Source: Flavobacteriales bacterium (GTDB lineage Bacteria; Bacteroidota; Bacteroidia; M30B66). Taken from it: a stretch of 64,000 nucleotides of DNA. Position 1 is the stretch's first letter, and the number at the start of each line of letters is the position of its first letter. The notes below the pieces were generated by a model, which saw only the letters and a program-made list of their open reading frames with translations, was not told where the DNA came from and ran no database searches. Made by a program: the position numbers and the translations under genes. Of the stretch, positions 32,607-53,600 are shown in pieces. The DNA lies in NCBI GenBank assembly GCA_046294625.1, contig JBKBKN010000004.1, positions 69,982-133,981 of the forward strand. Reading direction: 5' to 3'.

Positions 32607-35600
32607 TTATCTTCTTAAGTCAACATATCCTGTAATTGTATCGAAGCCGTCAACTTCGAGAATAATAAAATAAGTTCCCTCTGGTAAGTTCTCGCCGTTA
32701 TTGTTTACTCCTACCCAATCATTGGCATAGCCTCGCTGCTGGAAAACAATGTTACCCCAACGATTATACACTGTCAACGAATTTGATGGATAGCCTTCGA
32801 GACCTTGAACAACAAAACGATCGTTGAAACCATCACCATTTGGTGTAAATCCATTTGGTACAACTAAGCCTTTTGGCGCTGTTAATGTAATGCTTAATTC
32901 CACACTGCAACCTACAGCATCTGTGATAGTCACAGAATAGGTACCTGCAGGAAGATTTGAACGATCCGATGTTACTATCGATGAATTATCAGACCAAGCG
33001 TATGTAAATTCAGGAATTCCGCCACTTACGGTTGTTGTAATACTTCCATCGCTTCCACCAATAGTGCTGACATTAAACCCATTATTGTAAAGCGGACTGT
33101 TGATTGTTGCATTAATAGTAGGAGACTGAATAATATTAATAAAACCAGTTGCTTGACAGCCATTTTGATTCGTTCCGGTTACGAAATAAGTACCAGGTGA
33201 CGTCACAACTATTGATTGACTTGTTTCACCTCCAGGGAACCAAGAATATAAAACATAGCCAGCGTTTGCTGTTAATGTAATGTTAATAGGATCATTTCCA
33301 CATACGATGGTATCGCTGTCTGCAGTAATGACAGGAACAGGATTCAATTTAACCGTGATATTTACTATTGTAGACAATGAAGAACAACCTGCCGCATTAG
33401 TTACTTGTACTTGATAGCTTCCGGGAGTGTTGGCACTCACAGAAGGAGTTGATAAATTAGAAGGTGTACCATCAATAATCCATGTGAAATTTGTAGTCGC
33501 ACTTGAAGTAAGTGTAACAATATCACCTTCACAAAGGTCGGTAGGCCCATTCAAGGAGATGGTTGGTTGTGGAGGATTAGCTACCACAGAAACAGTTGTT
33601 GCTACTGGCTCGCTTTCACAACCAGCCTGATTCGTTACCACCAATGTGTAAATACCTGCTTCTGAAGCTGTGATAGTTTGTGTATTAAGTGTAGCCGAAG
33701 GTGTTGTCCACTGATATGAGGTTGCTTCACCGGCTGTTAAAGTAACCGTTTCACCCTCGCAAATGGTTTGATTACCAGATGGTGTAATTGTTGCTACAGG
33801 GGCATCAAGTATGGATACATTAATGACGTTTGAAAATGCAGTGCAGGTTCCATCAGATACTGAAGCCGTGTAGGCGCCTGGCTCTGTAACCAAAATGCTT
33901 AACACATTTTCAATACCATTGCTCCATGTGACACCTTCACCTATGGTTGATGTAAGTATTACACTTCCACCTTCACAGAATATCGTGTCGCTCTGAGCAG
34001 AAATAATTGGTGCCACAGGAAGCGGCAGTACAGCAACATTTACTGTATCTGTTATTTCGCAGCTGTTGGCATTGGTTATGGTTACAAATACTGACGTGTT
34101 TGTGGAAACAGAAACAATAACAGAAGGCTCATCATTGGGTCCTACTATGGCAGAAGCTGGTCCCCATGAATAAATAGCGCCCGATACATTTGCAGCTTCC
34201 AAGGTAATGGTCTCATTTTCACAAACACTAATTTCTCCGGGTAATCCTGAATTAACAACCGGCAACACAGTAATGACAATTGTGTCTACTGACACACCGC
34301 AGTTATTGGTTCCTGTAACTGTGTAAACAGTTGTCACGGGCGGACTGGCTATGGGATTGGAAATAATCGTACCAGTTAGTCCAATTGAAGGACTCCACAC
34401 ATAACTATCGGCGCCGCTGGCTTGCAATTGGGTAGAAGAACCTTGGCAAATAGTCACATCAGCTCCAGCATTTACATTTGGTAATGGCGAAGCTTCAATA
34501 TCAATCGTATTAGACACCGCTGTGCATCCAAACTCGTTCGTAACTGTTACAAAATAAGAGCCTGAAGTGTTGACAGTGATAACAGCTGTCGTCTCTCCAC
34601 TTGGCGACCAAACAATGCCATCTGATACACTTGAAGTTAAAATCACTTCATCGCCTGGACAAATAATCAATTCTCCTTCCGCCGTTATCACAGGCACTTC
34701 AGGATTAGGATTAACTGTTAATGTTACCTGACCGATTAATATGTTACCTTCACAGCTAGGATTGGACTGAGATACCAAAGAAACCAAGGTGTAGGTAGTA
34801 GTAGTATTTGGATTCACATCGAAGCTAAACGTATTTTGATTGAATCCGGTTACATTAACATTCGTTATTCCATCGAAATAGGTGAAGTCGAATGGCGCTT
34901 GACCAATCAAACTTATAGTAACCGTAGCAGACTCACCTTCACATATTTCATTATTGTTTATAGTGATTTCACCTGAAGGCGCATCATCTAAAATTAGATT
35001 GACGCTCTCTGAAACTTCACAATTGGCTCCATCTGTCAATTCAATTAGATAGATACCGGCAGATAAGCCAGTAACATTCAAGTCAGAAATGGGGTTGCCA
35101 TTTAGGGAAATTACAACCGGATCAGTAGCATTACTAAAAGAAATTAAGATGCTACCGCTAGCAGGATCATCACAAGTTGGATTTTCTGATATAATTTCCA
35201 ATATAGGTTGATTCGGATTTGAAATAGTAACACTTGTATCAGCAGAACAGCCATTGGCATCCGTTACAGTTACTGTATAAACTCCGTCGGCTAAGCCAGT
35301 AATGGTTGCTGTGGTTTCGTTGTTAGACCACAATATGCTAAACGGTTCAGTTCCTGAAAGTATGGTAACAGTGGCTGTTCCATTTGATTCATTACAGTTT
35401 TCATTGTCTGTGGATGTGGCAGCAATTTGCACAGATGGTGAACCACCAATGATAACATTTACCGTTGTTGAACAATCATTAATATCGGTAATGGTCACTG
35501 TATATTCCCCTTCGCAAAGCGCATTCTGCTGTGCACCACTCAAGCCATTGCTCCACTCAATAGTAAATGGACCTTGACCGGAGGTTACATTAATCTGGGC

Positions 35601-38600
35601 AGTTCCATTACATAGTCCGCAGCTTGCATCCGTTGAAAAAACTTCTGCTTCAACATCGGATGGGCCTTCGGGAACTACAAAGGTTAATATATCAACACAA
35701 TCGTTTGCATCTGCTATAGTAGCAACATAGGTACCAGCTGGAATATTTGACAATACTAAGCCAGTAGAATTATTAGGATCATTCCAGGATACAGTAAATG
35801 GCCCTGTTGTACCTTCTATAACAAGTGTAATAGAACCCGTGTTAGCACCGCACGAAGGGGCTTCAATTGTTTCAGTAACCTCGAAGTCTACTACATTACC
35901 AACAGCCACGTCTAAAGAATCAACGCAGCCATCTTTCTCAAATACCACAATTCGATAAAGACCAGCGGCTAAACCTTCAATATCTTCATCAAACGCGAAA
36001 GGTTCAGATTCTCCGACTACAAACCATGATACCAATGGTGCACCAGATCCACCGATAATGGTAATATCAATTTCACCGTCTTCTAAACCACAGGTGGCAG
36101 GAAGAACGGTAGCTGTAATTTCAAAGTTAATTTCGTTTTCTAATAGGAATTCGCCCGTGAGTTCGCAGCCTGCGGCGTCCACTATAGTGTATTCATACAA
36201 ACCTGCATTTATTTCTTCAAGAACCGGCCCGTTAAATTCCGGTGGGAAGCCTGTCCATATAATTTCATAAGGTTCAACTCCACCGCTCACGATCAAAGTA
36301 ATGCTTCCATCATCAAAACCACAAGAAGGATTTTGTGCAATTACATCAACCAAAATAGCTGAACCATTATCTTCAAGCGTGGCCGAAGCAATTGCAATAC
36401 AATTGCCAGCGTCTGTAACAGTAACTGTGTATTCACCAGGTCCTAAATCAGTGATTGGATTATCCGTTGAGCCAGTATTCCACAATATATCAAATGGCGC
36501 CTGACCACCAATAAATGAAATATTGATTGAACCGTTTGCTGCTCCGCAAGTTGGCTGAGAAACTTCTAAGATTAATTCAGGTGCTTGTGAATTCTCCAGA
36601 CAGAAAGATGCACTAGCTTCACATCCATTTTCATCCTGAATATCGACTGCGTAGCAACCTGCAGCAAGTCCCCCAATTGTTACATCAGTAGATCCATTCT
36701 CCCAAAGCACTGTAAAATTACCTGACCCGTTAACCACATCTATTGTCAATGAACCATCTTCTGATCCACAACCAGGTTGCTGACTTGCTACAAGAACAAT
36801 CTCAGGTTGATCGGCATTTTCAATAGTTATGGTTTCGGTAAACAAACATCCCGCACCATCAAATCCTGAAATTACATAAGTACCAGCTTCGAGCGTGTTC
36901 AAAGTGAGTGTTCCGCTTGCAAATGGGGCATCGTCTTTAGTCCAGTTTGAAGTAATAGGTGCAACTGCATTGGTTAGTGTCACACTGATTGATCCAGTTG
37001 GAACACCGCATGAAGATGGTTGGGAAACAAAACTAACTTCAATTGCCAGGCTCGGTTCAATTGTGTAACTGCCTTCCACAACACAGTTTTTAGCATCAGT
37101 TAATACAAAACTGTAGTCTCCTGGCGCTAAACCAAATTGGTCGATTGTTGTGAAACCATTATCCCATTCGATCGAGAATGGCTCAGTGCCGCCAGTTATA
37201 GTTAAATCAATAATTCCATTATTGTTTCCGCAGCTTGTGTTCACTACAGTAGCAGAAACTTCTGGCACATTTATATTAGTAACAGTAGCTGAACCTGTCA
37301 CAATACAGCCTGCAGCATCGGTTACGGTTACTGTGTAGGAACCTGGAGCCAAAATGCTACCCGTGTTTGCTGTGGTTATGGCACCTGGCTCCCAAAGAAT
37401 AGAAAAATCAGGCGTACCGCCAATGATATTAACGAAAGCCGACCCGGTATCTACATCACAAGCTGTGTTCACCGAGGTGATTTCGAGTTCAGGCAAATTT
37501 TCAAACTGTAGGTCAAAATTCAACGTTAGTAAACAAGTTTCATCCCCGCTGTCAGTAATTGTAACTTGATATGAACCCACAGCCAGTTCTGTGCGATCGG
37601 ATGTAGTTGGCCCGTCGCTCCAGCTGAAGGTAAATGATCCGGTACCTCCAGTCACAATAAGAGCGATACTTCCATTTTCTTGACCGCAATCAGGGTTAAC
37701 AACTGTTTCTTGAACTTCAACAGGTACAACTTCGTTGATGCTAGCCTCTAATGAGTCAATACAACCAGCAGCATCAGTAACAATTAATTTATAAGTGCCA
37801 CCACCCACATTAGTCAAGTTTTGAGTGGTAGTATTAAGAACGTCATTCCACAGGAAAGTGAATTCAGGAGTTCCGCCAACAGGATTTGGTACGATAATAC
37901 TCCCACCTTGAGGCTCCAAACAAGTAGGTTGAATCACTTCAGGCACGCCAAGTGTAAACGCATTTTCATTTTCAATCAAAAATGATTCTGAAATTTCACA
38001 GCCATTTTCGTCAGTTATTGTAACTGTATATGAACCGGCTTCAAGGCCCGTTAAAGGCAAACCGGTTGCGCTATTTGACCATACAATGGTAAACTCAGGC
38101 TGACCTCCTGTGATTGTGAAATTGATGGAGCCATCATTGTTACCGCAAGTTGTTTGATCAATGATTATATTCTCAATTTGTGGACCATCTTCAAGAATTA
38201 TCGCCTGTGAACCAGCAACTTCACATCCAGCTGCATCCACAACTGTTACGGTGTAGCTGCCCACCGGTAAGTCGTTTACTGTGGCCGTTTGTGCCGATCC
38301 GGCATTTGCTCCCCACTGAATATCAAAAGGTGGAGTTCCTCCGATAATATTTACGGTGATGCTTCCTAATAGATTAGAGCAAATTGCATTCGTTACATCA
38401 AATGTTAATGAAGGTTCATTTTCATTTTCCAAGGTAAATGTTTCAGATGAAAAACAACCTGTAGCGTCGGTTACAGTTACAGTGTAAGAACCGGCTTCTA
38501 ATCCGGAAATATTTTGTGTAATAGCATCGTTAGACCAAACAAAAGTATATGGTGTTGAGCCACCACTTACTGCGATGTTAATTTCACCTCTTGGATCGTT

Positions 38601-40172
38601 GCAAAGTGGCTGCACATCGCTCTCTAAAGTTATAGTAGGATTCTCACCGGGTGTAACATCAGTAGTTCCGGTATTCTGGCATTCTCCATCTGGAGATACA
38701 TATTGAACAATATATGAATTTCCCGCTACTAAATTTGAAATAACACCGGTCACAGCATTAATCGTTGCCCCGTCATTGGGTTCTGGATTGAATGAAAACA
38801 CACCCCCTTCTGTAAAACCTTCAACTAAAATTGGGTTTAACTCCGTAATACCAGGACAAACTACGCCATATGAAAAATCTACAATGTCAGAAGGCTGCAC
38901 AGTGATTGTAGTAGTATCGCGAACTTCACAGTTTGGTCCTTGAACAGTGTAGGTAATTGTGTATGTAGCATTAGGAAGGCTATTGGAAATCACTCCTGTA
39001 TTTGCATCAACAACAGATCCATCTCCAGGATCGTTCAAAAAGGCAAAAACACCTCCTGATATCCAGTTGCTGCTCAAAACTGGCTCGTTTGATGTGGTTC
39101 CGCAATAAGGCTCATAAAAAAAGTTGATTTCTGGTCTTGGAACTGTTGTAACAGTAACCGCTCCGTTAGCTCCACCTAAGGTTATGCCACAATTGGTCGG
39201 GAAAGAATCGGTCAAACCTAAGACGGTATATGTACCGGGCTCGGTAACAAATACAACAGTTGAATCAGAAGCGCCGTCAAGAAAAAATACGTTCTGCTGA
39301 CCGCCATCGCTGGAGTAAATAATCTGATATGGATCAACACCCCCATCTACTAAGATTACCAAAGGTAAGGAATCACCTTCACAAATCGTTACTTCCGGAT
39401 TTTGGGGTGTGGTTACGATTAAGCCATTTTCGTCCAAATAAGACAGAAATGTAAATATCGGGGTATTTACTGTGATAGTTACAGGAACTGATGAACTAAC
39501 ACAGCCGTTAGCTCCTGTAACTTGAGTGTAATAATTTCCTGATGAAACTACACCAAGAAAGGGCTGATTATTAATTCCGCCGGGAAACCACAAATTATTT
39601 ACCGGACTGCTTGAAGTAAGAAAGGTAGATGCTGATCCAAAACAAAACTGCAAAGGGCCATTGACATTCACAGAAGGTATCGGCGGCGCTACTTGTGTTT
39701 GTATATTAATGCCTAAACCATTATCAATTGTGGTGGCCGATGGAACCTGAGTAGAAATAACCCTGATGCGGTAATCGGTTCCGGGTGTTGCGGTTCCGGG
39801 TATCACCCCAAAAATGAAACCTTCTATATCTGTACCGGATAAGCTAACGCTTCCAATGTCTGTAGGGATTGTGAAATCTCCTGTAGCATCAGACAATTGT
39901 GCCACGAAAGTATTTGGCGCAGGATAAATCCCTTGGGCTTCGAAATTTACCACCACTGTAGAGCTTCTGCAATATTGCCCAGCAGGTATTGGCTTGGTAA
40001 TAATTACATTTCCTCCTAAAGGCTCATCTAAATTACCTTGAAACATTGCAAAAATCTCAGCAGTGCTTAGGGGTTCAAATGGTTTATCACCCAATGAAAC
40101 AGCATTTGCTAAACTGCTTATGAACAAAAAAAAGAGATATGTCAGACAAATTGAGTAAAAACTTCTTTTCAT
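32607..40172 (-). CDS. Giant cell-surface adhesin with SprB repeats and a type-B T9SS C-terminal domain (gliding motility-associated CTD)
   Basis: Signal peptide. About 17 SprB-type repeats (C..xGxIxxxxxGGxxPFxxxW...G.YTVTVTDAxGC). Ig-like modules. C-terminus ...PNGFTPNGDGFNDRFVVQGLEGYPSNSLTVYNRWGNIVFQ...GTYFIILEV... Confidence 0.92.
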   Translation of the reverse strand: MKRSFYSICLTYLFFLFISSLANAVSLGDKPFEPLSTAEIFAMFQGNLDEPLGGNVIITKPIPAGQYCRSSTVVVNFEAQGIYPAPNTFVAQLSDATGDFTIPTDIGSVSLSGTDIEGFIFGVIPGTATPGTDYRIRVISTQVPSATTIDNGLGINIQTQVAPPIPSVNVNGPLQFCFGSASTFLTSSSPVNNLWFPGGINNQPFLGVVSSGNYYTQVTGANGCVSSSVPVTITVNTPIFTFLSYLDENGLIVTTPQNPEVTICEGDSLPLVILVDGGVDPYQIIYSSDGGQQNVFFLDGASDSTVVFVTEPGTYTVLGLTDSFPTNCGITLGGANGAVTVTTVPRPEINFFYEPYCGTTSNEPVLSSNWISGGVFAFLNDPGDGSVVDANTGVISNSLPNATYTITYTVQGPNCEVRDTTTITVQPSDIVDFSYGVVCPGITELNPILVEGFTEGGVFSFNPEPNDGATINAVTGVISNLVAGNSYIVQYVSPDGECQNTGTTDVTPGENPTITLESDVQPLCNDPRGEINIAVSGGSTPYTFVWSNDAITQNISGLEAGSYTVTVTDATGCFSSETFTLENENEPSLTFDVTNAICSNLLGSITVNIIGGTPPFDIQWGANAGSAQTATVNDLPVGSYTVTVVDAAGCEVAGSQAIILEDGPQIENIIIDQTTCGNNDGSINFTITGGQPEFTIVWSNSATGLPLTGLEAGSYTVTITDENGCEISESFLIENENAFTLGVPEVIQPTCLEPQGGSIIVPNPVGGTPEFTFLWNDVLNTTTQNLTNVGGGTYKLIVTDAAGCIDSLEASINEVVPVEVQETVVNPDCGQENGSIALIVTGGTGSFTFSWSDGPTTSDRTELAVGSYQVTITDSGDETCLLTLNFDLQFENLPELEITSVNTACDVDTGSAFVNIIGGTPDFSILWEPGAITTANTGSILAPGSYTVTVTDAAGCIVTGSATVTNINVPEVSATVVNTSCGNNNGIIDLTITGGTEPFSIEWDNGFTTIDQFGLAPGDYSFVLTDAKNCVVEGSYTIEPSLAIEVSFVSQPSSCGVPTGSISVTLTNAVAPITSNWTKDDAPFASGTLTLNTLEAGTYVISGFDGAGCLFTETITIENADQPEIVLVASQQPGCGSEDGSLTIDVVNGSGNFTVLWENGSTDVTIGGLAAGCYAVDIQDENGCEASASFCLENSQAPELILEVSQPTCGAANGSINISFIGGQAPFDILWNTGSTDNPITDLGPGEYTVTVTDAGNCIAIASATLEDNGSAILVDVIAQNPSCGFDDGSITLIVSGGVEPYEIIWTGFPPEFNGPVLEEINAGLYEYTIVDAAGCELTGEFLLENEINFEITATVLPATCGLEDGEIDITIIGGSGAPLVSWFVVGESEPFAFDEDIEGLAAGLYRIVVFEKDGCVDSLDVAVGNVVDFEVTETIEAPSCGANTGSITLVIEGTTGPFTVSWNDPNNSTGLVLSNIPAGTYVATIADANDCVDILTFVVPEGPSDVEAEVFSTDASCGLCNGTAQINVTSGQGPFTIEWSNGLSGAQQNALCEGEYTVTITDINDCSTTVNVIIGGSPSVQIAATSTDNENCNESNGTATVTILSGTEPFSILWSNNETTATITGLADGVYTVTVTDANGCSADTSVTISNPNQPILEIISENPTCDDPASGSILISFSNATDPVVISLNGNPISDLNVTGLSAGIYLIELTDGANCEVSESVNLILDDAPSGEITINNNEICEGESATVTISLIGQAPFDFTYFDGITNVNVTGFNQNTFSFDVNPNTTTTYTLVSLVSQSNPSCEGNILIGQVTLTVNPNPEVPVITAEGELIICPGDEVILTSSVSDGIVWSPSGETTAVITVNTSGSYFVTVTNEFGCTAVSNTIDIEASPLPNVNAGADVTICQGSSTQLQASGADSYVWSPSIGLTGTIISNPIASPPVTTVYTVTGTNNCGVSVDTIVITVLPVVNSGLPGEISVCENETITLEAANVSGAIYSWGPASAIVGPNDEPSVIVSVSTNTSVFVTITNANSCEITDTVNVAVLPLPVAPIISAQSDTIFCEGGSVILTSTIGEGVTWSNGIENVLSILVTEPGAYTASVSDGTCTAFSNVINVSILDAPVATITPSGNQTICEGETVTLTAGEATSYQWTTPSATLNTQTITASEAGIYTLVVTNQAGCESEPVATTVSVVANPPQPTISLNGPTDLCEGDIVTLTSSATTNFTWIIDGTPSNLSTPSVSANTPGSYQVQVTNAAGCSSLSTIVNITVKLNPVPVITADSDTIVCGNDPINITLTANAGYVLYSWFPGGETSQSIVVTSPGTYFVTGTNQNGCQATGFINIIQSPTINATINSPLYNNGFNVSTIGGSDGSITTTVSGGIPEFTYAWSDNSSIVTSDRSNLPAGTYSVTITDAVGCSVELSITLTAPKGLVVPNGFTPNGDGFNDRFVVQGLEGYPSNSLTVYNRWGNIVFQQRGYANDWVGVNNNGENLPEGTYFIILEVDGFDTITGYVDLRR
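35010..38603 (-). repeat. Tandem array of about 16 SprB repeats (protein level, roughly 70-75 aa each)
   Basis: Repeats run from CNDPRGEINIAVSGGSTPYTFVWSN... to ...GIYLIELTDGANC. They have diverged at the DNA level. A 17th copy lies near 32890-33110. Confidence 0.8.
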
Positions 40173-41701: not shown

Positions 41702-43180
41702 TTAGTGGAAAAACTTCTCCACTTCATTGGCCACCACTTGACCTGAAATGATCGATGGTGGTACACCGGGTCCTGGAACGGTCAGTTGACCTGCATAAAA
41801 AAGGTTTTTCACTTTCTTGCTTTTTAAAGAAGGTTTTAAAATGGCTGTTTGGTTAAGTGTGTTTGCAAGGCCATAAGCATTTCCTTTAAAGGCATGATAA
41901 TCAGCAATAAAATCGCTATGAGCGAAAGTTCGCATATAAACAATTTTAGAACGGATATCCTGTTGGCAATATTTCTCCATTCGATCCATTACTAAATTGA
42001 AATAGCGAATTCGAAGTTCTTCATCATCCCCATCCAGTCCGGTAGCTGCGGGAATCAATACAAACATGTTTTCCATTCCTTCGGGAGCGCCTGATGCATC
42101 TGTTTTGGTAGTAAGTGAAACATAAAACAGGGGATCTTCTGGCCATCGGGGTTCCGTGTAGATTTCATGAGCATGCCGCTCAAAAGGCCTATCAAAAAAT
42201 AAAGTATGGTGAGGAAGCTTGTTTACCGGCTCACTCAATCCAACATAATAAAGTAATGAAGATGGAGCCATTACCCTTTTTTCCCAATACTTTTCGGTGT
42301 AACTTCTTTTCTCCTTTGGCAACAAATTGGCTTCTGCATGGTGATAATCAGCGCCTGCAACTACTAAATCAGCGGTAAAATCCCCTTTGTGCGTTCTGAC
42401 TTTTGTAATATTACCTAAAGCATCAAACTCGTAGCCTTTTACTTCGTGAGATAATTTAATCGTCACACCTTGACTTTCGGCAATTGAAACCATAGCTTCT
42501 ACAATCCTATGCATTCCGCCAATGGGATACCATGTTCCTAATTTAATATCGGCATAATTCATTAAGCTGTATAGAGCAGGAGTGTTTTGAGGAGTTGCGC
42601 CAAGAAACAATACCGGAAATTCGAGTAACTCAATCAAGCGCGGATGACTGGTGAATCGACGAATATGCTTCGACATACTTGTGAATACATCTAACTTGAA
42701 CACACCGGTAATTAATTCGATATCCAAAAATTCTGTAAGCGATCGGCTTGGTTTATAGACCAATTTGTTGATGCCGACTTCATATTTGTAAGCAGCTTCA
42801 TCTAAAAAACTTTTGATTCGCTCTCCGGCACCTGGTTCAAATGCATCACACATTGCCATAAACTGCTGGAAATCAGCCGGTATATCAGTAGATTCATTCT
42901 CTGACCAAACTACTTTATAGGATGGATCAAGGCGTTTCAATTCATAAAAATCAGTAACAGATTTACCAAATAAGTTGAAATACCTTTCAAATACGTCGGG
43001 CATCCAATACCAACTGGGGCCCATATCAAAGGTGAAGCCTTCTGCACTAAACTTGCGAGCTCTTCCTCCTGCAATATCATTCTTTTCTAATATAGTGACC
43101 TTGAAGCCTTTTTTAGCCAAACATGCAGCTGCGGAAAGGCCTGCAAAACCTGCACCAATTACAATAATATGTTTATTCAT
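41702..43180 (-). CDS. crtI: Phytoene desaturase
   Basis: FAD-binding fold IIVIGAGFAGLSAAACLAKKGFKVTILEKNDIAGGRAR. 492 aa. C-terminal GQLTVPGPGVPPSIISG. Confidence 0.9.
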   Translation of the reverse strand: MNKHIIVIGAGFAGLSAAACLAKKGFKVTILEKNDIAGGRARKFSAEGFTFDMGPSWYWMPDVFERYFNLFGKSVTDFYELKRLDPSYKVVWSENESTDIPADFQQFMAMCDAFEPGAGERIKSFLDEAAYKYEVGINKLVYKPSRSLTEFLDIELITGVFKLDVFTSMSKHIRRFTSHPRLIELLEFPVLFLGATPQNTPALYSLMNYADIKLGTWYPIGGMHRIVEAMVSIAESQGVTIKLSHEVKGYEFDALGNITKVRTHKGDFTADLVVAGADYHHAEANLLPKEKRSYTEKYWEKRVMAPSSLLYYVGLSEPVNKLPHHTLFFDRPFERHAHEIYTEPRWPEDPLFYVSLTTKTDASGAPEGMENMFVLIPAATGLDGDDEELRIRYFNLVMDRMEKYCQQDIRSKIVYMRTFAHSDFIADYHAFKGNAYGLANTLNQTAILKPSLKSKKVKNLFYAGQLTVPGPGVPPSIISGQVVANEVEKFFH

Positions 43181-43238: not shown

Positions 43239-43465
43239 CCATTTCATGTGTATATAATTTGGTTTTTAATAGGTCACATGGAATGTCCTGATATTCATCC
43301 CCGGTTGGTATGAGCTTATTCTTATGGACATTTCATCTGTGAGTTATTTTATTTTTAGTGGCTCCGATAACTATCGGGGTGCTATGTCCGGCCTTCACGG
43401 GGGGAGAATTTCTTAGTATGCATTTTCGTTTAGTTTGAGTTTGCTCTTAAGGACATTTCATGTGG
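43239..43465. repeat. Four copies of a roughly 14-bp motif, GGACATTTCATGTG, upstream of crtI
   Basis: Copies at 43239-43250 (partial), 43275-43288 (inverted, 13 of 14), 43326-43341 (one inserted base) and 43451-43465 (exact). Confidence 0.6.
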
Positions 43466-43519
43466 TAATAAAAAAGAAAAGCCTCCAAAAAGCAGGCTCT
43501 ACAATAGGTTTAGATCAAA

Positions 43520-44752
43520 TTATTGTCTGATGACTTTGTAGCTTCTGGTAGTTTCTTTTGTACTGATTTGAATGATATACAAACCTTTAGAATATTTACC
43601 TAAGTCAAGTTGCTGACGGAAAGGTTTATCAGTTGCAACATTAAGACGTTCGCTGATCACTTTTTGACCCAAGTTGTTAAATACGCCTATTTCAACCATG
43701 TTGTCGCTCACGCCATTGATAAATTCAAGTGTAAGGAAATCAGTGACTGGGTTAGGATAAATATTTTACACCTTAAGTGACGATTTGTGTTACCCCTTCG
43801 TTTTGAGCAAATCTTGCTGAGCTGCTCAGGCATCCCGGTTGAGTAACTACAACTCCGTCCACATCATAACCATCCTGATTGTTGCCGTTGCCAAAGTTAG
43901 CTGGGTTTGAAATATCGGTTATTCTGATGTATTGAATTGGCCCTTTGCCATTCAAGTCAAGAAAACCATCTAAACAAACTTCGCCGATTGTGAACCAATT
44001 TACTAAATCCAAAGAACCATCAACTCTCGCTCTTTCAGGATATAAGTTGCAGGTTTGTGGACCAAATGATGTTTCTACAATTTCAAGGTCATTGCCCGGC
44101 TTGTCGAATATCACGCAAGAGAACCCAAGAGTTAATGAACCACCATATCCTAAAGAAACAAAGTTTAAGTTATCCACTCTTTGATGTGCACCTAAGGCTT
44201 TAGTTGCATCTTGTCTTTCAGCCAAAGGAGCCGGAGCATTCTTTCTTGGACCTGGGGCATATTCAACTACAAAAGTAGCATACTGACAATCGAGCGTCTG
44301 CAACACAGGGTCTGACTCAAATCCATTTAAACATTCCACACCATCCAGATCTTAACCATCGGCAATATGGCCTACATTAGCAAATGCGCCAATTGGAATT
44401 GTATCGATTAGTCTAATGTACTGCGACCATTCAAGTCCGCCATTAGCGAAATCAAATTCTGTGTCTTGACAGCCGCCTCCGATAAATTTCCAGCTGCAGC
44501 CATCCTGAGAAGCAAATACATTAATCGACTCTGGGTACGTATTGCAATTTTGTGTCCATGGAGAGAAAGTTGTCTTCCATACTTTAATGTCATTACCATG
44601 TCCATTCTTAATAGGAAGGATAAATTTGAGTGTAATCTGACCTCCGAAGCCTAAGGCTACAAAGTTTACATTCTCATCAGATGTGTTTGCGTCGCTACGC
44701 TCATGCTCGCCCAGCGCTTTTTCAGAATTTGCTCTTAACACCGGAATATCTT
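43520..44752 (-). pseudogene. 3' portion of a disrupted T9SS-cargo gene: two tandem ~125-aa domains plus a T9SS CTD
   Basis: No signal peptide or start codon. In-frame TAA at 44354-44352 between two homologous domains (NFVALGFGGQITLKF... and NFVSLGYGGSLTLGF...). A frameshift near 43770 precedes an intact-looking CTD (IYPNPVTDFLTLEFINGV...GLYIIQISTKETTRSYKVIRQ). Confidence 0.8.
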
Positions 44753-44815
44753 AGCCATTAGTTGGGCGTCATTGTAAAGAAACCGCAGCCAGGACAGAGA
44801 ATCAACATAAAATGC

Positions 44816-44823
44816 TAACTTTG
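44816..44823 (+). promoter_or_regulatory. Candidate -7 promoter box (TAACTTTG) for the endonuclease gene
   Basis: TAnnTTTG match 24 nt upstream of ATG 44848. Confidence 0.45.
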
Positions 44824-44847
44824 CTACTTTAAAAATGACACGATTTG

Positions 44848-45612
44848 ATGAAAAATAAATACGTAAACTTTATAACTGACGAACACTTGTTGACCTGTAT
44901 AGGGAATCTCCACAATGCATATTTGAAGACGAAAAACAACATCACAAAGAAAAACTTCTACTCAAACAAAGTTGACACAATCAAACTGACTTTCGACTCA
45001 AAATTCAATGACATTGACGAAGAAAAATTAATTCAATCAGAGATATTAAGACAGATCGACAAATCAATTAATAATTCAATCGGAACTTTTCACGAACAAA
45101 TTTTGGGCGGAATAAAAGGATTTGAAGCAGGAAACTTGAGCGGTTATGATATCAAAGCAACTGACAATACTCTATTTGCAGACATAAAAAACAAACACAA
45201 CACAATGAATAGTAGTGCAGCCGAAGCACTCTTTCAGAAATTAAAACGATATGCAGACGATTACAAACAAGCAAAATGTTATTGGGTGCAAATCCTTGCA
45301 AAAGGTAGTTTTTGTGAATTATGGAGCGGTGACATAAATGGGAAAGAATACAGTCATAGTAGAGTTTATAAAATTTCAGGAGACCAGTTTTATGCTTTAC
45401 TATCAGGACAACAAGATGCAATGCTTCAATTATACAAAGCTCTTTCAAGTGCAATCAAAGACTATCTAAAATCAGTTGAAAAGACCGAAGAAATTGCTGA
45501 AAACTCTGCATTAGAAGAAATTAAATCAGAAATTAAAACAAGCAAAAGAACTGTATTAGACCAAATTACTTTTGAGAATTACAGCTACTATCTTGGCTTT
45601 GACAAGTTGTAG
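44848..45612 (+). CDS. Type II restriction endonuclease, PD-(D/E)XK fold (possibly Eco47II/Sau96I-like)
   Basis: Convergent with, and overlapping, an m5C methyltransferase gene. Candidate catalytic GYDI...FADIKNKHNTMNS (D...D-x-K). The family assignment is from memory only. ATG 44848 is preferred over TTG 44845. Confidence 0.6.
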   Translation: MKNKYVNFITDEHLLTCIGNLHNAYLKTKNNITKKNFYSNKVDTIKLTFDSKFNDIDEEKLIQSEILRQIDKSINNSIGTFHEQILGGIKGFEAGNLSGYDIKATDNTLFADIKNKHNTMNSSAAEALFQKLKRYADDYKQAKCYWVQILAKGSFCELWSGDINGKEYSHSRVYKISGDQFYALLSGQQDAMLQLYKALSSAIKDYLKSVEKTEEIAENSALEEIKSEIKTSKRTVLDQITFENYSYYLGFDKL

Positions 45613-46832
45613 TATTGATTCAAGAACTTAACAATCGAATAACCTACCTCTGTGCCTAAATTAACGGGAACAGCATTTCCAATTTGTTTGTATTGTTGAG
45701 CCATTGAACCCTCAAAAGTCCAATCATCGGGAAAAGTTTGGATACGAGCATATTCTCTAACTGTAAAAGGACGAGTTTCTTCAGGATGACACCTTTCAGT
45801 CTGTTTTTGAGCAGGACTGCAAGTTAAAGTTAAACAAGGTTCGTCCCAACCAATTCTGCGTGCAATTCCAGTTTTGCCACCGCCTAAATGAAAACTTCCA
45901 CCCATAAATTGTTTTTGAATATCAAGTGGTAAATCACGCCAATATCCCTTCTGTGGAACTAAATCTAAAACAGCTTTTTTGCTTTGTGGGTATTTAGCAC
46001 CAGGCGACTTTGGAACATTGGTATCGTAAAGTTCGCCTTTCTTTAAAGCATCTTCTAAATTATAGATTTTATTGTGCGGTTTAGGATATTCATATTTCAA
46101 ATCAATATCTTTTCTAACACCAACCAATATTAAACGCTCACGTTTTTGTGGCACTTTATAATTTATGGCTTTTAAGACTTGAACAGGCTCAACATTATAG
46201 CCTATTTCATCTAAAATTAAAATCATACCTTGCAAAGTTTTTCCATTCTCGTGACTAAGTAAACCACGGACATTTTCGCCAATACAAATTGGTGGGTTAA
46301 CTTCTTTGACAACTCTTGCAAACTCATAAAATAAAGTTCCTCTTGCATCAGCAAGACCAAGTTTTTTCCCTGCATAGCTAAACGCCTGACAAGGAAAACC
46401 CCCAGTTACAACATCAACTGAATTATGATACTCTGTAAAGTCAAAATCTTTAATATCGCCCTCCAAGACTTTCCAATTTGGACGGTTTTTTCGCAATGTT
46501 TGACAAGCCCACTTATCAATCTCATTCAATGCGACACATTTCAATCCGGCTTTTTCCAAACCAATTGCCAAACCACCGGCTCCGGCAAATAATTCTAATA
46601 CAGTATATTCATTGTGCGGTTCAACATAGTTAGAAACAGTATCTTCTAAATCGTGACTAAAAAAATCAGCAAAAAGCGTTTCGACTTGTTCTCGTTTATA
46701 AACACGGTAATTACTCATAGGCTCACGGACAGCGGACAATTTACCTTCCCTATCCCAACGTCTAAGCGTTTCTTTGCTTTTACCAATAAGTTCAGATGCT
46801 TCGGACAGCGACAAATATTCTTTCATAACCAA
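45588..46832 (-). CDS. DNA (cytosine-5)-methyltransferase with an N-terminal MerR/excisionase-type HTH domain
   Basis: Motif I ELFAGAGGLAIG, IV GGFPCQAFS, VI ENVRGL, VIII QKRERLILVG, X GNAVPV. N-terminal LSLSEASELIGKSKETLRRWDREGKLSAVREPMSNYRVY. Confidence 0.93.
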   Translation of the reverse strand: MVMKEYLSLSEASELIGKSKETLRRWDREGKLSAVREPMSNYRVYKREQVETLFADFFSHDLEDTVSNYVEPHNEYTVLELFAGAGGLAIGLEKAGLKCVALNEIDKWACQTLRKNRPNWKVLEGDIKDFDFTEYHNSVDVVTGGFPCQAFSYAGKKLGLADARGTLFYEFARVVKEVNPPICIGENVRGLLSHENGKTLQGMILILDEIGYNVEPVQVLKAINYKVPQKRERLILVGVRKDIDLKYEYPKPHNKIYNLEDALKKGELYDTNVPKSPGAKYPQSKKAVLDLVPQKGYWRDLPLDIQKQFMGGSFHLGGGKTGIARRIGWDEPCLTLTCSPAQKQTERCHPEETRPFTVREYARIQTFPDDWTFEGSMAQQYKQIGNAVPVNLGTEVGYSIVKFLNQYYNLSKPR

Positions 46833-46856
46833 GTTGTTTAACCTTACACAATGGTT

Positions 46857-46864
46857 ACAAATTT
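46857..46864 (-). promoter_or_regulatory. Candidate -7 promoter box (TAAATTTG on the minus strand) for the methyltransferase gene
   Basis: TAnnTTTG match 24 nt upstream of ATG 46832. The inverted hexamers TAACCA (46826-46831) and TGGTTA (46851-46856) lie between the box and the start codon. Confidence 0.4.
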
Positions 46865-46918
46865 ACGACTAAAAATGAAACAGACAACAACGAAAGGAAA
46901 AAACAACGAACGCCCAAC

Positions 46919-47037
46919 AGCCGTTTTGCAAAAGCGGGGGTTTCGTGCTTCTATGAAAGTGAAGTGCTAAATTCAAGCTTTGTGCGTCTAATGAAGTTTA
47001 GTGCAGAAAATCCCCGCCTTCGCAAAGCGGCAAAACG
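46919..47037. repeat. Imperfect ~24-bp inverted repeats enclosing ~65 bp (long hairpin or MITE-like element)
   Basis: CGTTTTGCAAAAGCGGGGGTTT pairs with AAATCCCCGCCTTCGC..GCAAAACG. The interior holds a direct near-repeat, GCTTCTATGAAAGTGAAGTGC and GCGTCTAATGAAGTTTAGTGC. Confidence 0.5.
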
Positions 47038-47340
47038 ATCTTTTAACGGGAACACAAGAAATTACTTCTGATGCATAACACCCCGGAACAACACCTAGAT
47101 CCCATCCTCCAATAGAACTTCCAAGTCAAGGTGCGCCTGAACCGCATTTTGAGCTATCCAAATCAACTGTGCGTTTTCAGGATTACTGGATGGGTTATGG
47201 CAAACCAATACTTTTTGACTGTTTCCGTTGCCATTGCCATTGCCGTTACCATTGACTCTCTAAGCAATTGCTTCGTGGGTAGTAATTCCTGCCAATATGG
47301 TGGCGGAAATCACAATTTAATGTTTTAGGTTTTTCCTGAT
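47038..47340 (-). pseudogene. 5' portion of the same disrupted T9SS-cargo gene (signal peptide, NG linker, CH motif domain)
   Basis: The minus strand reads KNLKH*IVISATILAGITTHEAIA*RVNGNGNGNGNGNSQKVLVCHNPSSNPENAQLIWIAQNAVQAHLDL. After a frameshift near 47125 it reads GSSIGGWDLGVVPGCYASEVISCVPVKR. In-frame stops at 47319-47317 and 47262-47260. Confidence 0.65.
47221..47253 (-). repeat. Hexanucleotide tandem repeat encoding (Asn-Gly)n
   Basis: GTTTCC GTTGCC ATTGCC ATTGCC GTTACC on the plus strand, reading NGNGNGNGNGN on the minus strand. Confidence 0.8.
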
Positions 47341-47565: not shown

Positions 47566-47600
47566 AAAAAAAGCGGGGCTTGAATATTTCAAGCCCCGCT
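47566..47600 (-). terminator. Rho-independent terminator of the giant gene
   Basis: On the minus strand: GCGGGGCTT, loop GAAATATTC, AAGCCCCGC, then TTTTTTT, starting about 25 nt after the stop codon. Confidence 0.85.
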
Positions 47601-47625
47601 TTCATCAATTATTAATTAATCACAA

Positions 47626-50600
47626 TTATCTTACGATCGATAACTTCGCATTCGTACTGAATTTCTCGCCTTTGATCATTAATTGATAGATTCCAGGTTC
47701 GAAAGAGGAAACTTCAAGGATGATATTGCCTTTAGCTTCTACATCACGATAGTTCTTCGTTGCAACCAATTTACCGTTTCCATCAAGAATGAACACTGTC
47801 AATTCAGCTTCTCGCTGCGGCAGATTGATTCTGATGTTTGCCAAATCTCTCGCCGGATTAGGGAAAATACTCAATGACATTTTCTCAGCATCCATCACCC
47901 CCGTTGTGTTATCAACTACACGGATTGTTAAGGTTTTCACATCCATACAGTTTGCACTGCTGGCAATCAAGGTAACAGTGTAAGTACCCGGCTCAGTGTA
48001 CATGTGGCTTGGGTTGGCTACGTCTGTTACAATCGTGCCATCACCAAAATCCCAGGTAATATCTGTTGCACCATGAATAATAGAAGTGAAATTAACCAAA
48101 GCATTGGTAAGGTTTACCTGAGTTGCAGATGCAGCTATGCTTGCAGTAACACTTGCACCGGAAGCAACAGTTACCACTTCCTGCACACTTCCAAATGCAT
48201 TTGACAATTGAATATTGTAAACACCTCCTGCAAGATTGCTTACAGTAGTTGTTCCAGAGAAATTTTCTCCTTGAGCAACAACAAAATTCTGCTGATTTCT
48301 CACTTGATAGTTCCAAACAGTGTTTGATGGGCTATTGATGATAATCGAGCCATCATTTTGCGCACAGTTCTCAGTGAACGCTGTAAATGATATAGCTGGT
48401 TTGAAATGCAATCTGAAGCGGAATTCATCGGTGTTTCTGTCAAATACATAATTGTAAGAATCAGACACTCTCAAGTTGTGGTACACCCCTAGTTTGGTAT
48501 CTTCAAGAATTACCATTGAGCTAGAAGGGAAGTTTTCAATATCGCGCAGCCTTAAAGTTTGTGCTCCGCTATTGTTTGCACGAACTGAAAGTTGTACCAT
48601 TTTATCCTGATTGAGAGGGCTTCTTGCCTGGATGGCAAAATGAGAGCCGTCAATCATAGAAGATACCGCAAGATTGGTTGAGCCAAAGAGTTTCGGCGCA
48701 TCGAAATCAACATCCACTCCATCGGTTGCACCATCCATAAAGGCAAGGAGTGTCTCATTGTAGTGGTTTGTAGAATTAGACACACTAATCCACAAGCGCT
48801 GCCATTCATTGGTATTGAAGAATGCATTGTTCTCAGTAGTACGCATACTATTGTTGAATACCACATTTGTTGCACTGTTGGCAATCACTACAAAACCTTG
48901 GCCTGAAGCGATATTTCCATTGAAATTAGTACCGCTGTTCGGTCCGGTAAACCCAACCACGTTCCATACTCCATAATCATCATTGGTAAATCCTGAACCA
49001 CCTGAGTTATCGTCATCCCAGAAATACAAGGCTCCGCCAACGAAACGTCCCGGGTTAGCGGCAACAAATGATGTAGCGTTAAGAGCAGATGGATAAGGAT
49101 TACCGATTAGGTTCATTGTGGTATGCGTGCCAATAAGCATTGGGCCATAGATGATGCTACCTTCATTTGCTGTTCCGTCGAAAGTAACAGTTCCGGCACC
49201 TGTTGCAGCAAATCCTTCACCCACAACCATAGACCCTGAAGCAGGTCTCCATCCGCTCAATAGGCCTGCAGATGAACTGCTTGTTGCAAAGTTAGGATTG
49301 TAACGGAATCTGTTTTGTCCCGGTAACAGGTTAAGACTTGCGCTGGTAATTGGAGAAGACCAATAGTTATAAGCAAGAGCGTTAGATGTACCTGTTCTGC
49401 GAATACGTACATTACCGGTTACGTTACCGCCTGCTCCGGGAGTTCCTGCACCATGCATCAATGAAGCATTGTTGGCTAAAATGATACCATTGTTGGTAAT
49501 CAAGTTTGCACCAGCTGCTACTTCAACAATGCCGGAGAATGTTGTTACACCCGAAAGTGTGGCTGTTGGCGAAGTGTATCGTACACGTCCTGCTCCCTGA
49601 AGCACGGTGTTTGAACCGGTCCAGTTTCCACCAATGCTCAGCGTTACTCCTTGTGGAATAGTAATGAAAGCAAGTGGCTCAATTACAATATTGCGACAGT
49701 TTCCATTCACCAAGGTTGGGAAGTTAGGTTTGTTGGTCGTGTTAGGAATCAAAACATCATCGCTTATGCCTGGAACAAATGATGGCAACCAGTTACCTGC
49801 ATCATGCCAGTTGTTATTGACTGCACCTGTCCAAGTGATCACAGATCCAAGCTGTTCACCCACCTGAAAATCTCCGAAAATGTTGTTCAGGTTGATGGCT
49901 TGTGTGCTGGTAGCTGTTCTCACACCAATAGCCGGTGAACTCCAAGCTGAACCATTAAATCTGGCTACTTCAAATGTGTTGGTATTTGAACCAGCATCAA
50001 CATCCGCAGCTACGAAATTGAAGGTTGCATTATAAGATGCAATATTCAGAGCGCTTGGGGTAATATTCCAAAAACGGTTTACAGATCTTGCCGGATTCAA
50101 GCCAGAAGTTGCAATATTTGGATGGTCGCCGCTTTCTGTAAATACTGTAAGACTTCCAGTTCCTGTGATAGTTCCGGTAAAGATCAAATTCACAGGCGCA
50201 TAGCGATTGTTATCACCTACTTCAAACAAACGTGATACCATGGTATTGTTGATGAATTTTTGCAACTGACCATTAACATATGAAGCTGCTGAAGCACCTG
50301 ATACACTGCCTGTTGCAGGAATCACAACTGTGTTACCGTTTGCAGCTAAGATACCATTGTTAAGTGTTAGTACATTATTCACCTGAATGTTAGCATTCAT
50401 AGATTTTATACCACCACCATTTATAGCCAGGTTAGTAAATTGAATGGCACCATTGAAAGATTGATTGGTGCCTGACATATTCACCAGACCAGATCCGCCA
50501 TTGAAGGCTGTAAAACCTGCCAGATTGCTGAAGTTTCCTCTTATATTGATTTCACGGTTAAATGAGTTGGTCACTTGACCTTGTGAGATGATAAAGTCTC

Positions 50601-53600
50601 CATTCACTAAGATATCGGAATTAAATAAAGTCTTGTTTCCAGTGCCGGTGAAATTTATGTTATTATATATGGTTCTGGAAGGTAATGCAGCAGTTACATT
50701 GGAGAAATACTCCACTGTTCCACCGCCCACTGCAGTGAAAGCGGAATAGGTACCCCCTGGGAAGATAAACTCATTTGCAGGTGTTGGTGTCATACGGATG
50801 GTTCCGGTTCCAGTCACCACACCAAAGTTATTTCCGATGGTGTTATTCAGATTCAATGTTCCGTTAATCTCAGCTGTTGGAGCCCCGGTATTGTTAGCGG
50901 TTACGGTGATCGTATGCGCAGGAGCAATTACAATCGGGTTAAATGTAGGTGGAACAATTGCCGGAGCACCTGTATGCTGCAGAATAGGATCTACTGACCA
51001 TGAAGCAGGATCGTTGAAGTTACCGTTAGCAATACTGTAGTAAACTTGAAGCGGGCCAAATTCCTGAGGCTCACCGGCGGTGAATTCACCATTTACATAG
51101 TTCACATTGCTAAGAGTGATGGTATTTGCAGTGGCGTTTACAGTGCCAGGAATACCATTCTGTGGTACCCATTGATTGTTAAAATATCGTCCTGCTACAT
51201 ATAAGTTTTCATCGCCATTTAAGGCAGCATCTGTCTGTACATAGTTATATACGTGGGTAAACAACGCACTTCCAGAGAAACCGTTTCTTGAGCTAATCCA
51301 ATAGTAGGTTAATTCGGTATTTGCAGGATCAGTGGTGGCAGGATGACGCGTATTCACCGGGCGAACCGTGATTTCTCCCGCAGCTGAATTGGATGTTGTA
51401 GAAATTGTTGCGGGCGTATATTTTAATGATACACCGATAGGAAAAGTAAATGAACTATTTGTTGGCGGGTAAATTTTTCTTACTCCACCATCACTTGAAA
51501 CACCATTGGTACGAATCATGCGATCTTCATTAAATGTTCCGGTAACCGATGATTGCTGACCAAGTGTGAGTTGGTGATTGCCTATAAAAAAGAGACCGCT
51601 TTGAAGGTTTAATTCTCCATTGATACGAGTTGGATTGAGTATTTCAACACCTGCAAGATTATTTACTCGTAAATTACCAAATTGACCATTACCGTTTCCA
51701 CTTATGGTTTGAGCAACAGAACCATTCAATACGATAAATCCAGCACCTGACGATGTATGCAATACATTGTTCACCACATTACCAAGCACTGTGACCAGGT
51801 TAGCTCCTGTTGCAAATGTTCCGTTTAATAGAGATAAATTTCTATTTACACGAAGGTTTGAATTTGGATTTAGAGTAACAGAGCCGGATGTGAAACTATT
51901 GTTAATCTCAAGATTAGCAAAATTGATCAGGTTAGTGCCGGTACCAATAATCACTTGATTGCCGGTTGCACCATTAAATCTTGTTACTTGAGAAGCAGCT
52001 ATTGGCCTGTAACCACCTACTGCTAACCCTGTTGCTGCTGATGAATTTTGCACCAATAAGTCACCTCCGATTTCGATATCAAAGGAATTTGTGTTAAACA
52101 CCGATTCTCCAAGAATACTCAAATCATCAAGGATGCTCAGCGGATTTCCAATTACTCTGAGTGTTTTGCTGGTGGTGGTGCCATCTACTGTCAAATCCCA
52201 AAGTGCGGCAGTAGAGTTAATCTCAAACAACATGTTAGAAGCTGTGCTGCTTGTACCTACACGTATCTCTCCACCTGTAACATTGCTGAAAGAAGGCTGA
52301 ATGTAAATATCACCAAAAATATTGCTGGCTGCACCATTCCGATCAATAATCAATAAACTGTTGTCAGACATATTAAAGGAACTGCCAGAATTCAAGATTT
52401 CGAATTTAGCCCGATTCAAATTAAATGAAGCCGAATTCGGATTGCGTCCTCTTATTAATACAGTGCTGTTGCCAGATTGCGTGTAACTCAGGCCTCCAAG
52501 CAGCACATTCACACTTCTTCGTATTTGACCATTCACATTCAGCGATCCGTTTCCAGCTACTATAATAGTTGGTGTTCCTGATGCGGAATATTCAATATCA
52601 TTGTGATTATTGTTTGTATGATTACCTACATTCATTGTCCCCGCCTGAATATTAATTGTTCCAGAGAGAACAAGATCTGATGTATTATTTGCACCCATCC
52701 CTACATTGATTTCAATTCCGCTATTATTTAATACCAATGCGGAGCTGGAAGGAATAGTGAAAACATCAGTTTGATCGGTTAAAGTTAATGACCCTGGTCT
52801 TGAGAATACCAGCCTACCATTTAGCAAATTCAACCAATTGTTGGTTGGTGCTGTCATTGTACCTTGCATGCTCACATTCACCGAAAGAGACTGATTATTG
52901 CCCTTATTTATAGTCAATAGACCAAAGTTGGTTTGCGCTGTTGCGTTAGTACCATTGATTGATGCATCTGTATTACCGATCATGTTTAATGAAACCGGCG
53001 AACTTTGATTAAAGTTGATTACTCCATTATTGGTCACATTGCCGAATGCGTTCAACTGATGAACTACTGAACCACTTGAATTTCCCTCAAAGAAACCGCC
53101 ATTATTGACCACAATGTTACCGGTAACATTAATTGTTTGTGCCACATTAGATGGCATGCGGAAGATACCTGAATTTACAGTAAGAATACCACTAATATTC
53201 AATTGACGCGCAACATTATTATTTAATGTAGCAATACTGGATGCTGAACCATTGATGGTCATGTTTTGAAGTATATTCAAATCTGTTTCAGGTAATGAAA
53301 TAGTTTCGGTCCCTGAAGAAGCGATCACTAAATTTCTGTAGCTTTCTATTGGCAAAGCATTTGGAGCAGCTGTCATTGAAGGCAAGTTAAAACTTGTACC
53401 TGTGCCATAATATTCAGCTGTTCCACCCTGATTGGTAAAGAATAGACCAAAGTCACCTCCCGGCCATTCAGCTGTTGGCGTTGCTGATGAAATTCTGATA
53501 CGTCCTGCACCACCAGCGGTAGAGAATGGAAGTGCTCCGAAATTGTGTCCGGTTGTGGTTCCCAATGTGAGCACTGAGCCTGCATCGACAATCAAACTAC

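Follow-up and report, generated by a model that had tools for sequence, protein, structure and literature searches.

A type II restriction-modification pair within a broken T9SS cargo gene of a Flavobacteriales bacterium, probably a cassette of an integron-like system

Integron cassettes stand in tandem arrays beside a tyrosine recombinase and are bounded by G|TTRRRY and by attC, an imperfect hairpin with RYYYAAC and GTTRRRY boxes of which a single strand folds well; type II restriction-modification (R-M) systems are among their known cargo (bioRxiv 10.1101/2024.07.02.601686). The integrase IntI1 also inserts cassettes into genomes at 5'-GWT-3' and can disrupt genes in doing so (bioRxiv 10.1101/2022.09.11.507474; Loot et al. 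2024, Nat Microbiol, cited in PMC12614218), and IntegronFinder surveys of the Bacteroidetes have returned nothing but In0 elements and a single complete integron, that of Salinibacter (PMC9024848). Here we consider a stretch of 64,000 nucleotides from a Flavobacteriales bacterium (GCA_046294625.1, contig JBKBKN010000004.1, positions 69,982 to 133,981; hereafter the window, with positions counted from its first letter), in which a type II R-M pair interrupts a gene for a cargo protein of the type IX secretion system (T9SS). Our analyses suggest, with a probability that we put at roughly three in four, that positions 44762-47037 are a two-gene R-M cassette of an integron-like system of the Bacteroidota, inserted at a secondary site.

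With integron cassettes, the family of sites to which that in the window belongs shares the G|TTRRRY boundary, the imperfect hairpin with both boxes, the single well-folding strand, the tandem arrays beside a tyrosine recombinase, cassettes of 0.5-2.4 kb and type II R-M cargo. The insertion itself resembles the secondary-site (attG) events of IntI1 in that a single cassette lies outside an array, with crossover after the G of G|AT in the window or of G|TT in a second locus, and a gene is disrupted with no target duplication; it differs from them in being a natural and old event in an uncultured member of the Bacteroidota, in the Xer-like family of the associated enzymes, and in a cassette with promoters of its own. 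Xer-dependent modules, namely pdif modules and integrative mobile elements exploiting Xer such as the CTX phage with its folded attP, have in common with our system an Xer- or XerA-like recombinase and a folded single strand as the (here predicted) substrate, whereas the Bacteroidota sites are not 28-bp dif-like sequences, the recombinase is dedicated and adjacent, and no dif site is involved.

The split gene and the limits of the insert

Read on the minus strand, the insert is flanked by the two parts of a T9SS cargo pseudogene. The N-terminal fragment (47038..47340) comprises a signal-peptide-like segment, an (NG)n linker, a stretch VCH...AVQAHLD and the start of a first beta-sandwich domain (GCYASEVISCVPVKR), and the C-terminal part (43520..44761) comprises the rest of domain 1 (SNG, a stop and DIPVLRANSEKALG), domain 2 (CQYATFVVEY) and a Por_Secre_tail C-terminal domain (43765-43520; PF18962, E 6e-7). 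An earlier sequence-only reading of this DNA had proposed a single T9SS cargo gene, split by the R-M unit and then decaying, and had advised joining the flanks in silico. Once joined and repaired, their translation matched 294 proteins, the best of which are intact single-gene T9SS proteins of 555-585 aa at 55-66% identity, and the alignments run uninterrupted through the junction. The N-terminal layout of signal peptide, linker and VCH...AHLD recurs in the intact proteins P0060, P0074 and P0055, with 92-95% of the query covered. Because the homologue alignments pass through the junction and intact relatives have the same N-terminal layout, the two flanks are, by protein homology, to be read as halves of one gene. 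Intact homologues carry both the signal peptide and the Por_Secre_tail of T9SS cargo, and the window copy is broken. The best T9SS homologue, P0004, was considered as a positional orthologue and rejected, its neighbourhood being different. The predicted structure of another homologue, P0001 (predicted local distance difference test score, pLDDT, 79.7), is a chain of beta-sandwich domains, for which the PDB fold search returned generic beta-sandwich folds and nothing more specific (template-modelling, TM, scores 0.1-0.2).

The decay of this gene is extensive. The N-terminal fragment has no in-frame ATG, with ATC at 47340-38 instead, and contains the stops TAA at 47319-17 and TAG at 47262-60 together with a frameshift that three-frame translation places at about 47140-47100, while the C-terminal part contains TAA stops at 44753-51, 44354-52, 43775-73 (with a frameshift at 43775) and 43768-66, all on the minus strand. 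The stops at 47319-17, 47262-60 and 44354-52 and both frameshifts had already been listed from the sequence, and translation bears them out. The C-terminal domain, which had been said to read cleanly, does so from 43765 downwards, but the stops at 43775-73 and 43768-66 stand just before it.

Deleting exactly 44762-47037 (2,276 bp, with an ambiguity of one nucleotide since either G 44761 or G 47037 may belong to the host) yields a single reading frame of GGWDLGVVPGCYASEVISCVPVKRSNG, a stop and DIPVLRANSEKALG (PVKRSNG-stop-DIPVLR), or over a longer stretch GCYASEVISCVPVKRSNG, a stop and DIPVLRANSEKALGEHERSD, which aligns without a gap at the junction to P0001 (CYAHEVVSYNPGKRFDGSDVPTLRANPEKALGEPDKSD), P0002, P0004, P0006 and P0055. 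On the plus strand the insert shows the ends G|TTGGGC... and ...GCCCAAC, which match GTTRRRY, the core site of integrons, and RYYYAAC, the inverse core site. Its first six bases, TTGGGC at 44762..44767 (+), are the half of the core site G|TTRRRY that the cassette brings with it, the crossover base being G 44761, shared with G 47037; the same G|TTRGGCGTCATT boundary comes after an attC-like site in four R-M loci of other genomes (L040, L048, L087 and L044). At the other end, 120 nt separate GCCCAAC from the restart of the host gene at 47038: the spacer base A comes first, then an arm of 20 nt, a loop of about 70 nt, the complementary arm and AAAAC-G. The DNA homology that blastn detects to the loci L038, L040, L041 and L042 begins at 44761-44771 and stops at 46917-46957, and the two copies of GTTGGGCGT (44761-69 and 46909-17) coincide exactly with these limits.

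The inverted repeat GTTGGGCGT, which the sequence-only reading had pointed out, is real and corresponds to the pair of R boxes of an attC-like site. It could also be taken for the terminal repeats of a non-autonomous transposon, a mobile insertion cassette or an element like a miniature inverted-repeat transposable element, moved by a transposase acting in trans and leaving ATCTT as a 5-bp target duplication, and indeed the repeat (9 bp, or 14/16 if one gap is allowed) bounds the conserved block and ATCTT is found near both ends. The ATCTT copies are present where they had been reported, but they do not behave as a target-site duplication: they stand in different codon phases; one is separated by 9 nt from the GTTGGGC end, outside the insert, and the other lies 118 nt past the GCCCAAC end; and merging the two into a single copy shifts the reading frame. 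Moreover, those 118 nt between repeat and host gene are part of the same structured site, what look like inverted repeats are, in other genomes, the pairing R boxes of hairpin sites that follow one another in arrays, and neither the window nor the second intragenic case described below (L092) shows a direct repeat of the target. We consider a transposon highly improbable here.

Composition and relatedness both speak of the insert as an arrival from elsewhere, as the sequence-only reading had supposed when it judged the segment AT-richer by eye. The GC content is 0.361 against 0.405 +/- 0.019 for the host, with a lower value in only 1.3% of windows of the same size, and GC at third codon positions is 0.254 in the methyltransferase gene and 0.318 in the endonuclease gene against 0.379 +/- 0.045 in host genes; the composition of the insert is moderately foreign. 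At the protein level the R-M unit is 93-97% identical to copies in Cytophagales, Flavobacteriaceae and Bacteroidales, and at the DNA level the insert is 92-93% identical to copies in other orders, while the host CrtI has no relative above 65%. This cross-order DNA identity is the stronger argument for a foreign origin. Within the genome contigs searched, the best endonuclease is 97% identical and the best T9SS homologue 48%.

One may ask whether an assembler simply joined the cassette of one organism to the gene of another, the window being probably metagenomic and the Logan contigs breaking at 44876 and 43300. Such a chimera is extremely improbable: it would not produce two junctions that agree on a single in-frame insertion point within a single gene, and an independent assembly, the Logan contig L197 of run SRR31360865, spans the right junction and matches 43300-44876 at 100% identity; this identity means that the right junction and the stops it reproduces are not artefacts of one assembly.

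Hairpin sites, cassette arrays and tyrosine recombinases

According to the sequence-only reading, the insert carried only an endonuclease and a methyltransferase gene. This has to be amended: a 130-nt attC-like structured recombination site occupies 46908..47037 on the minus strand, at the methyltransferase end, as seen from a covariance model match, from folding and from the match of its arms. On that strand it runs from C 47037 (the last base of AAC) through a GTTTT spacer, an arm at 47031-47012, a loop of about 70 nt, an arm at 46939-46920 and a T to GTTGGGC at 46917-46911. Host sequence (...AAAAGAT) runs up to the C and takes the place of the 5' AA of the triplet AAC; these two bases are all that is missing in the alignment to the model. 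The boundary of an integron cassette is otherwise present as G|TTGGGC at 44761-67, GCCCAAC at 46911-17 and the 20-nt arms.

The model, R1, was built from 14 aligned sites beside Xer/IntI-like tyrosine recombinases elsewhere in the Bacteroidota and contains no sequence of the window or of any R-M locus; RNAalifold predicts 23 pairs for these sites, 16 of them with compensatory changes. Across the 64 kb of the window R1 has one significant match, at 46908-47045 (-), with 45.6 bits and E 2e-8 over the full length of the model (positions 1-139), by which we assign the site to a Bacteroidota integron-like cassette; control loci drawn from around T9SS homologues, 440 kb in all, gave no match. In 80 R-M loci R1 has twenty matches, every one on the strand that does not encode the endonuclease, and 109 occur in 43 of 79 loci gathered around relatives of the recombinases of two R-M loci (L045 and L090), where hairpin arrays are seen downstream. 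As many as 103 of the 109 lie downstream of the recombinase gene and co-oriented with it, starting 0.5-1.5 kb from its stop codon, and the other six, in four loci (L174, L181, L182 and L187), are upstream and divergent, which is the classical integron layout. Among 80 distinct sites, 17 of 18 stem pairs covary and paired cells make up 96.7%, where shuffles give 68% and slid controls 33-46%, figures to be read with the bias towards structure of an alignment (A5) that was fitted to the model.

The consensus of the bottom strand is RYYYAAC, a spacer of 4-6 nt, a stem of 18-20 bp, a loop, a spacer of 1-2 nt and GTTRRRY. The folding strand has three conserved G.T wobbles, which recur in 56 to 78 of the 80 distinct sites; as they become A.C mismatches on the opposite strand, they offer a simple reason why one strand only folds. 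No conserved bulged or extrahelical base was found in the 80 sites, and the spacer is asymmetric (4-6 versus 1-2 nt). Cassettes are spaced 0.5-2.4 kb apart (L117-L195). In the same loci the hairpin sites fall into two size classes, of about 130 nt and about 195-205 nt (for instance L124 11028-17306 and L192 9794-15308). No Rfam family matching the hairpin was found, and the 213-nt upstream region, taken as a whole, has an unremarkable fold (z -1.5), the signal being confined to the specific arms. Other ways of finding the sites served us less well. Two hand-written hairpin scans were replaced by the covariance model: the first was too noisy, and the second did no better on the R-M and T9SS loci than a reversed-sequence control; on the recombinase loci the second was clearly enriched, with 48 hits where the reversed control had 7, and 29 where it had 1 at E <= -25. 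An early MAFFT alignment (A2), of six sites trimmed by hand, did not keep the structures in register and was discarded.

The R-M pair has attC-like sites at its flanks in seven other loci (L040, L044, L045, L048, L087, L071 and L090). In L040 they stand on both sides of the pair, at the contig ends, and L044 has an array of four in 3.9 kb; the cassette layout of the window, G|TTRRRY followed by RYYYAAC...GTTRRRY with paired arms, is reproduced in L040, L045, L048, L087 and L044. Directly upstream of the G|TT boundary, L045 and L090 have a tyrosine recombinase gene, and on the Saccharicrinis chromosome (L090) this gene is followed by the R-M pair as the first cassette (site 8056-8192) and then by at least five more cassettes. 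Arrays are also present in cultured bacteria, namely Marivirga tractuosa ac6, Marivirga sericea DSM 4125 and Penaeicola halotolerans. Recombinases of this family occur in several copies on Saccharicrinis chromosomes (L121, L123, L124, L126, L186, L189 and L190), as many as four loci lying on a single one (OY776216.1), which suggests several arrays per genome or mobile platforms.

What kind of recombinase accompanies these arrays bears on whether we deal with a classical integron cassette, for which a bona fide IntI encoded elsewhere would have used an attG or secondary site, the Xer-like neighbours being unrelated to the event. The RYYYAAC and GTTRRRY boxes, the G|TT crossover, the GWT target and the array organisation are all as in integrons, and the NCBIfam model NF040815, whose cut-off two of five short recombinases pass, bears the name 'tyrosine recombinase/integron integrase'. 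The array-linked enzymes, of 277-480 aa, have archaeal XerA proteins as their best matches. All six compared from beside the arrays score 188-207 bits with TIGR02249, below its cut-off of 265, and always in two stretches that skip profile positions ~180-235; the L090 recombinase aligns with VchIntIA (2A3V) over residues 11-206 and 247-318 and has no counterpart of 207-246, the IntI-specific domain. Integron integrases carry that additional domain (Messier and Roy 2001, cited in PMC9668308). The recombinase genes are, furthermore, positionally locked to the arrays, at 0.5-1.5 kb from the stop codon and in shared orientation in 43 loci, the spacer is asymmetric and conserved bulges are lacking, and almost no integrons have been found in Bacteroidetes surveys (PMC9024848). 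A classical integron is for these reasons unlikely.

Compared with integrons, then, the Bacteroidota recombinases are devoid of the IntI extra domain, the sites have an asymmetric spacer and conserved G.T wobbles instead of extrahelical bases and are long with partly conserved loops, the recombinase gene mostly points towards the array, and the host phylum is nearly integron-free in surveys (PMC9024848). The system behaves like an integron but fails two of the tests that define one, the IntI extra domain and the extrahelical bases with a symmetric spacer; the IntI extra domain reads the extrahelical bases, and the absence of both fits together. In the library searched we found no description of a Bacteroidota integron-like system of this type, which is not proof of novelty. 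It is tempting to propose, and we do so tentatively, that the Bacteroidota harbour a large undescribed integron-like gene-capture family, with hairpins of ~130 or ~195 nt, strand choice by G.T wobbles, XerA-like recombinases never with the IntI extra domain, and cassettes, self-promoted R-M pairs included, that may also jump into genes at G|WT.

Insertion at a secondary site

We favour for the window a cassette of this integron-like system over the alternatives, and the event may be pictured as follows. The cassette would have been excised as a circle or have come by horizontal transfer; a recombinase supplied in trans would have cut its folded bottom strand at the A-C step of AAC, which is G|TT on the top strand, and linked it to a non-canonical double-stranded site, 5'-G|AT-3', within the T9SS cargo gene. 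The target before insertion would have read ...CCATTAG|ATCTTTTAAC on the top strand, and its product ...CCATTAG|TTGGGC...cassette...AAAACG|ATCTTTT..., with the crossover swapping the AA of the cleavage triplet for host bases. The host-cassette junctions indeed lie exactly at the AA|C (G|TT) cleavage point, in a target G|ATCT that is not duplicated, and removal of the cassette restores the frame with only AA lost. The G|AT target fits the GWT rule, given the 5'-GWT-3' preference reported for genomic insertion by IntI1. With host bases in place of AA, the R box has lost its ability to pair, and we infer from this altered box that the copy in the window is probably immobile. The crossover, the source of the recombinase and the timing are all reconstructions from the DNA as it now stands.

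The sequence-only reading had left the insertion mechanism unexplained, seeing no integrase or transposase. That part of the observation holds insofar as no array-type recombinase occurs in the window, and the attC-like site most likely supplies the mechanism that was missed.

R-M systems move by several routes. Illegitimate or homology-driven recombination, of the kind in which R-M units are found with long target duplications or substitutions and no site-specific enzyme takes part, would sit well with the lack of an array-type recombinase in the 64 kb, but the junctions are base-precise and in frame, show no deletion or duplication and fall at the cleavage point of a conserved site, and a second, independent case is just as precise; we regard this route as highly unlikely. 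The second case (L092, 3020-5289) is a related R-M cassette of 2,269 bp, solo, inside a gene for a CxxCxxCC-domain protein at G|TT, whose removal leaves an open reading frame (ORF) of 301 codons with no target duplication. This host gene is still stop-free, so that the insertion looks recent, and the locus supports the existence of a second natural, precise intragenic insertion. L038, considered as a third such case, was rejected, as no ORF runs across its junction.

Several observations weigh against the interpretation of the insert as an integron-like cassette. The junction is derived from protein homologues that are at most 66% identical, and no empty-site allele came to light, either in two scans of metagenome contigs for exact 22-mers of the host flanks or in a synteny search with CrtI, which met no genome closer than 65% identity. 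A recognisable site accompanies only about 13 of the 80 R-M loci, the pair lying in other contexts in most genomes. Neither array nor array-type recombinase is present in the 64 kb of the window, whose only tyrosine recombinase (26649-27551) is an ordinary XerC/D-like one, and the array-linked recombinases elsewhere are without the extra domain by which integron integrases are recognised and are, from their position beside the arrays, the predicted rather than the demonstrated agents at these sites. The structural bias of the pair counts belongs to the same side of the balance.

The R-M cargo, its surroundings and significance

R-M systems of the Eco47II/Sau96I type recognise GGNCC, the sequence cut by the prototype of the Eco47II family, and include methyltransferases fused to a helix-turn-helix (HTH) with SsoII-like autoregulation. 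The pair in the window resembles them in several respects. Its endonuclease (44848..45612, +; 254 aa, true start at the ATG at 44848) is of the Eco47II family, with PF09553 (RE_Eco47II) matched at E 6e-82 over 201 of 202 profile positions, and its 5-methylcytosine (m5C) DNA methyltransferase (45588..46826, -; 412 aa; PF00145 E 2e-85, TIGR00675 268 bits) holds all m5C motifs (I, IV, VI, VIII and X: FAGAGG, PCQ, ENV, QKRER and GN) behind an N-terminal MerR-type HTH (aa 6-53, E 1e-7). Both assignments agree with what had been read from the sequence. The two genes are convergent, their 3' ends overlapping by 25 nt, and both ORFs are intact (44845-46832): an endonuclease of a known family adjoins a methyltransferase of the cognate type, as in type II systems. 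Compared with the described systems, the genes are convergent, and regulation and GGNCC specificity are predicted only.

Each gene had been credited with a promoter box of its own, and such Bacteroidota -7 boxes could be located, TAACTTTG at 44816-44823 (+) for the endonuclease and TAAATTTG at 46865-46858 (-) for the methyltransferase. With Bacteroidota-type promoters for both R-M genes, an array promoter is not needed. Just after the methyltransferase box lies a palindrome TAACC-N9-GGTTA (46857-46839), conserved in all close R-M loci, which is likely to be an operator for the enzyme's own N-terminal HTH and thus autoregulatory, the HTH and the palindrome in the methyltransferase promoter together being the likeness to SsoII. 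We had also considered avoidance of GGNCC. The whole window contains 60 such sites against 115 +/- 10 in dinucleotide shuffles, but the deficit vanishes under the expectation of a Markov model (observed/expected 0.88, with CCNGG lower at 0.76); nothing is specific to GGNCC, and this line of evidence was dropped.

The endonuclease has at least 586 relatives among GTDB species genomes. Copies 94% and 81% identical are assigned to metagenome-assembled genomes of Pseudanabaena, a cyanobacterium (L041), and of Limnohabitans (L080), which reflects either transfer across phyla or binning error. Look-ups of the exact methyltransferase and endonuclease proteins found no record, and the exact ORFs of CrtI and of the pseudogene are recorded only in short Logan contigs identical to the window.

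As for the surroundings, two giant T9SS-type ORFs flank the region, at 47626-59025 (3,799 aa) and 32607-40172 (2,521 aa), and a perfect 15-bp hairpin with a T run (47570-47602), terminator-like, stands just downstream of the stop of the larger one. The best relative of CrtI (41702-43180) among GTDB species genomes is only 65% identical, which means that the lineage of the window is without a close sequenced representative there. The interval between crtI and the pseudogene (43302-43464) contains two direct copies of a 38-nt sequence, at 43302-39 and 43427-64 and 79% identical to each other, as well as a perfect palindrome, CCGATAACTATCGG, at 43364-77; similar palindromes, CCCGATAGCTATCGGG, occur in the loop of the attC-like site of L045.

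R-M systems are generally regarded as mobile although their vehicle is usually unseen, and the locus offers a concrete mechanism for what appeared to be an orphan R-M insertion, in which the addictive nature of the R-M pair may help to retain the cassette while the split host gene decays. The insertions in the window and in L092 would be natural examples of gene disruption by cassettes, so far shown mainly in laboratory assays. They further point to an integron-like system in a phylum scored as nearly empty by surveys that define the integrase through a domain absent here. Should the recombinases prove to act on these sites, cassette capture would require neither the IntI extra domain nor the extrahelical bases, which would bear on how integrons evolved from Xer recombinases.

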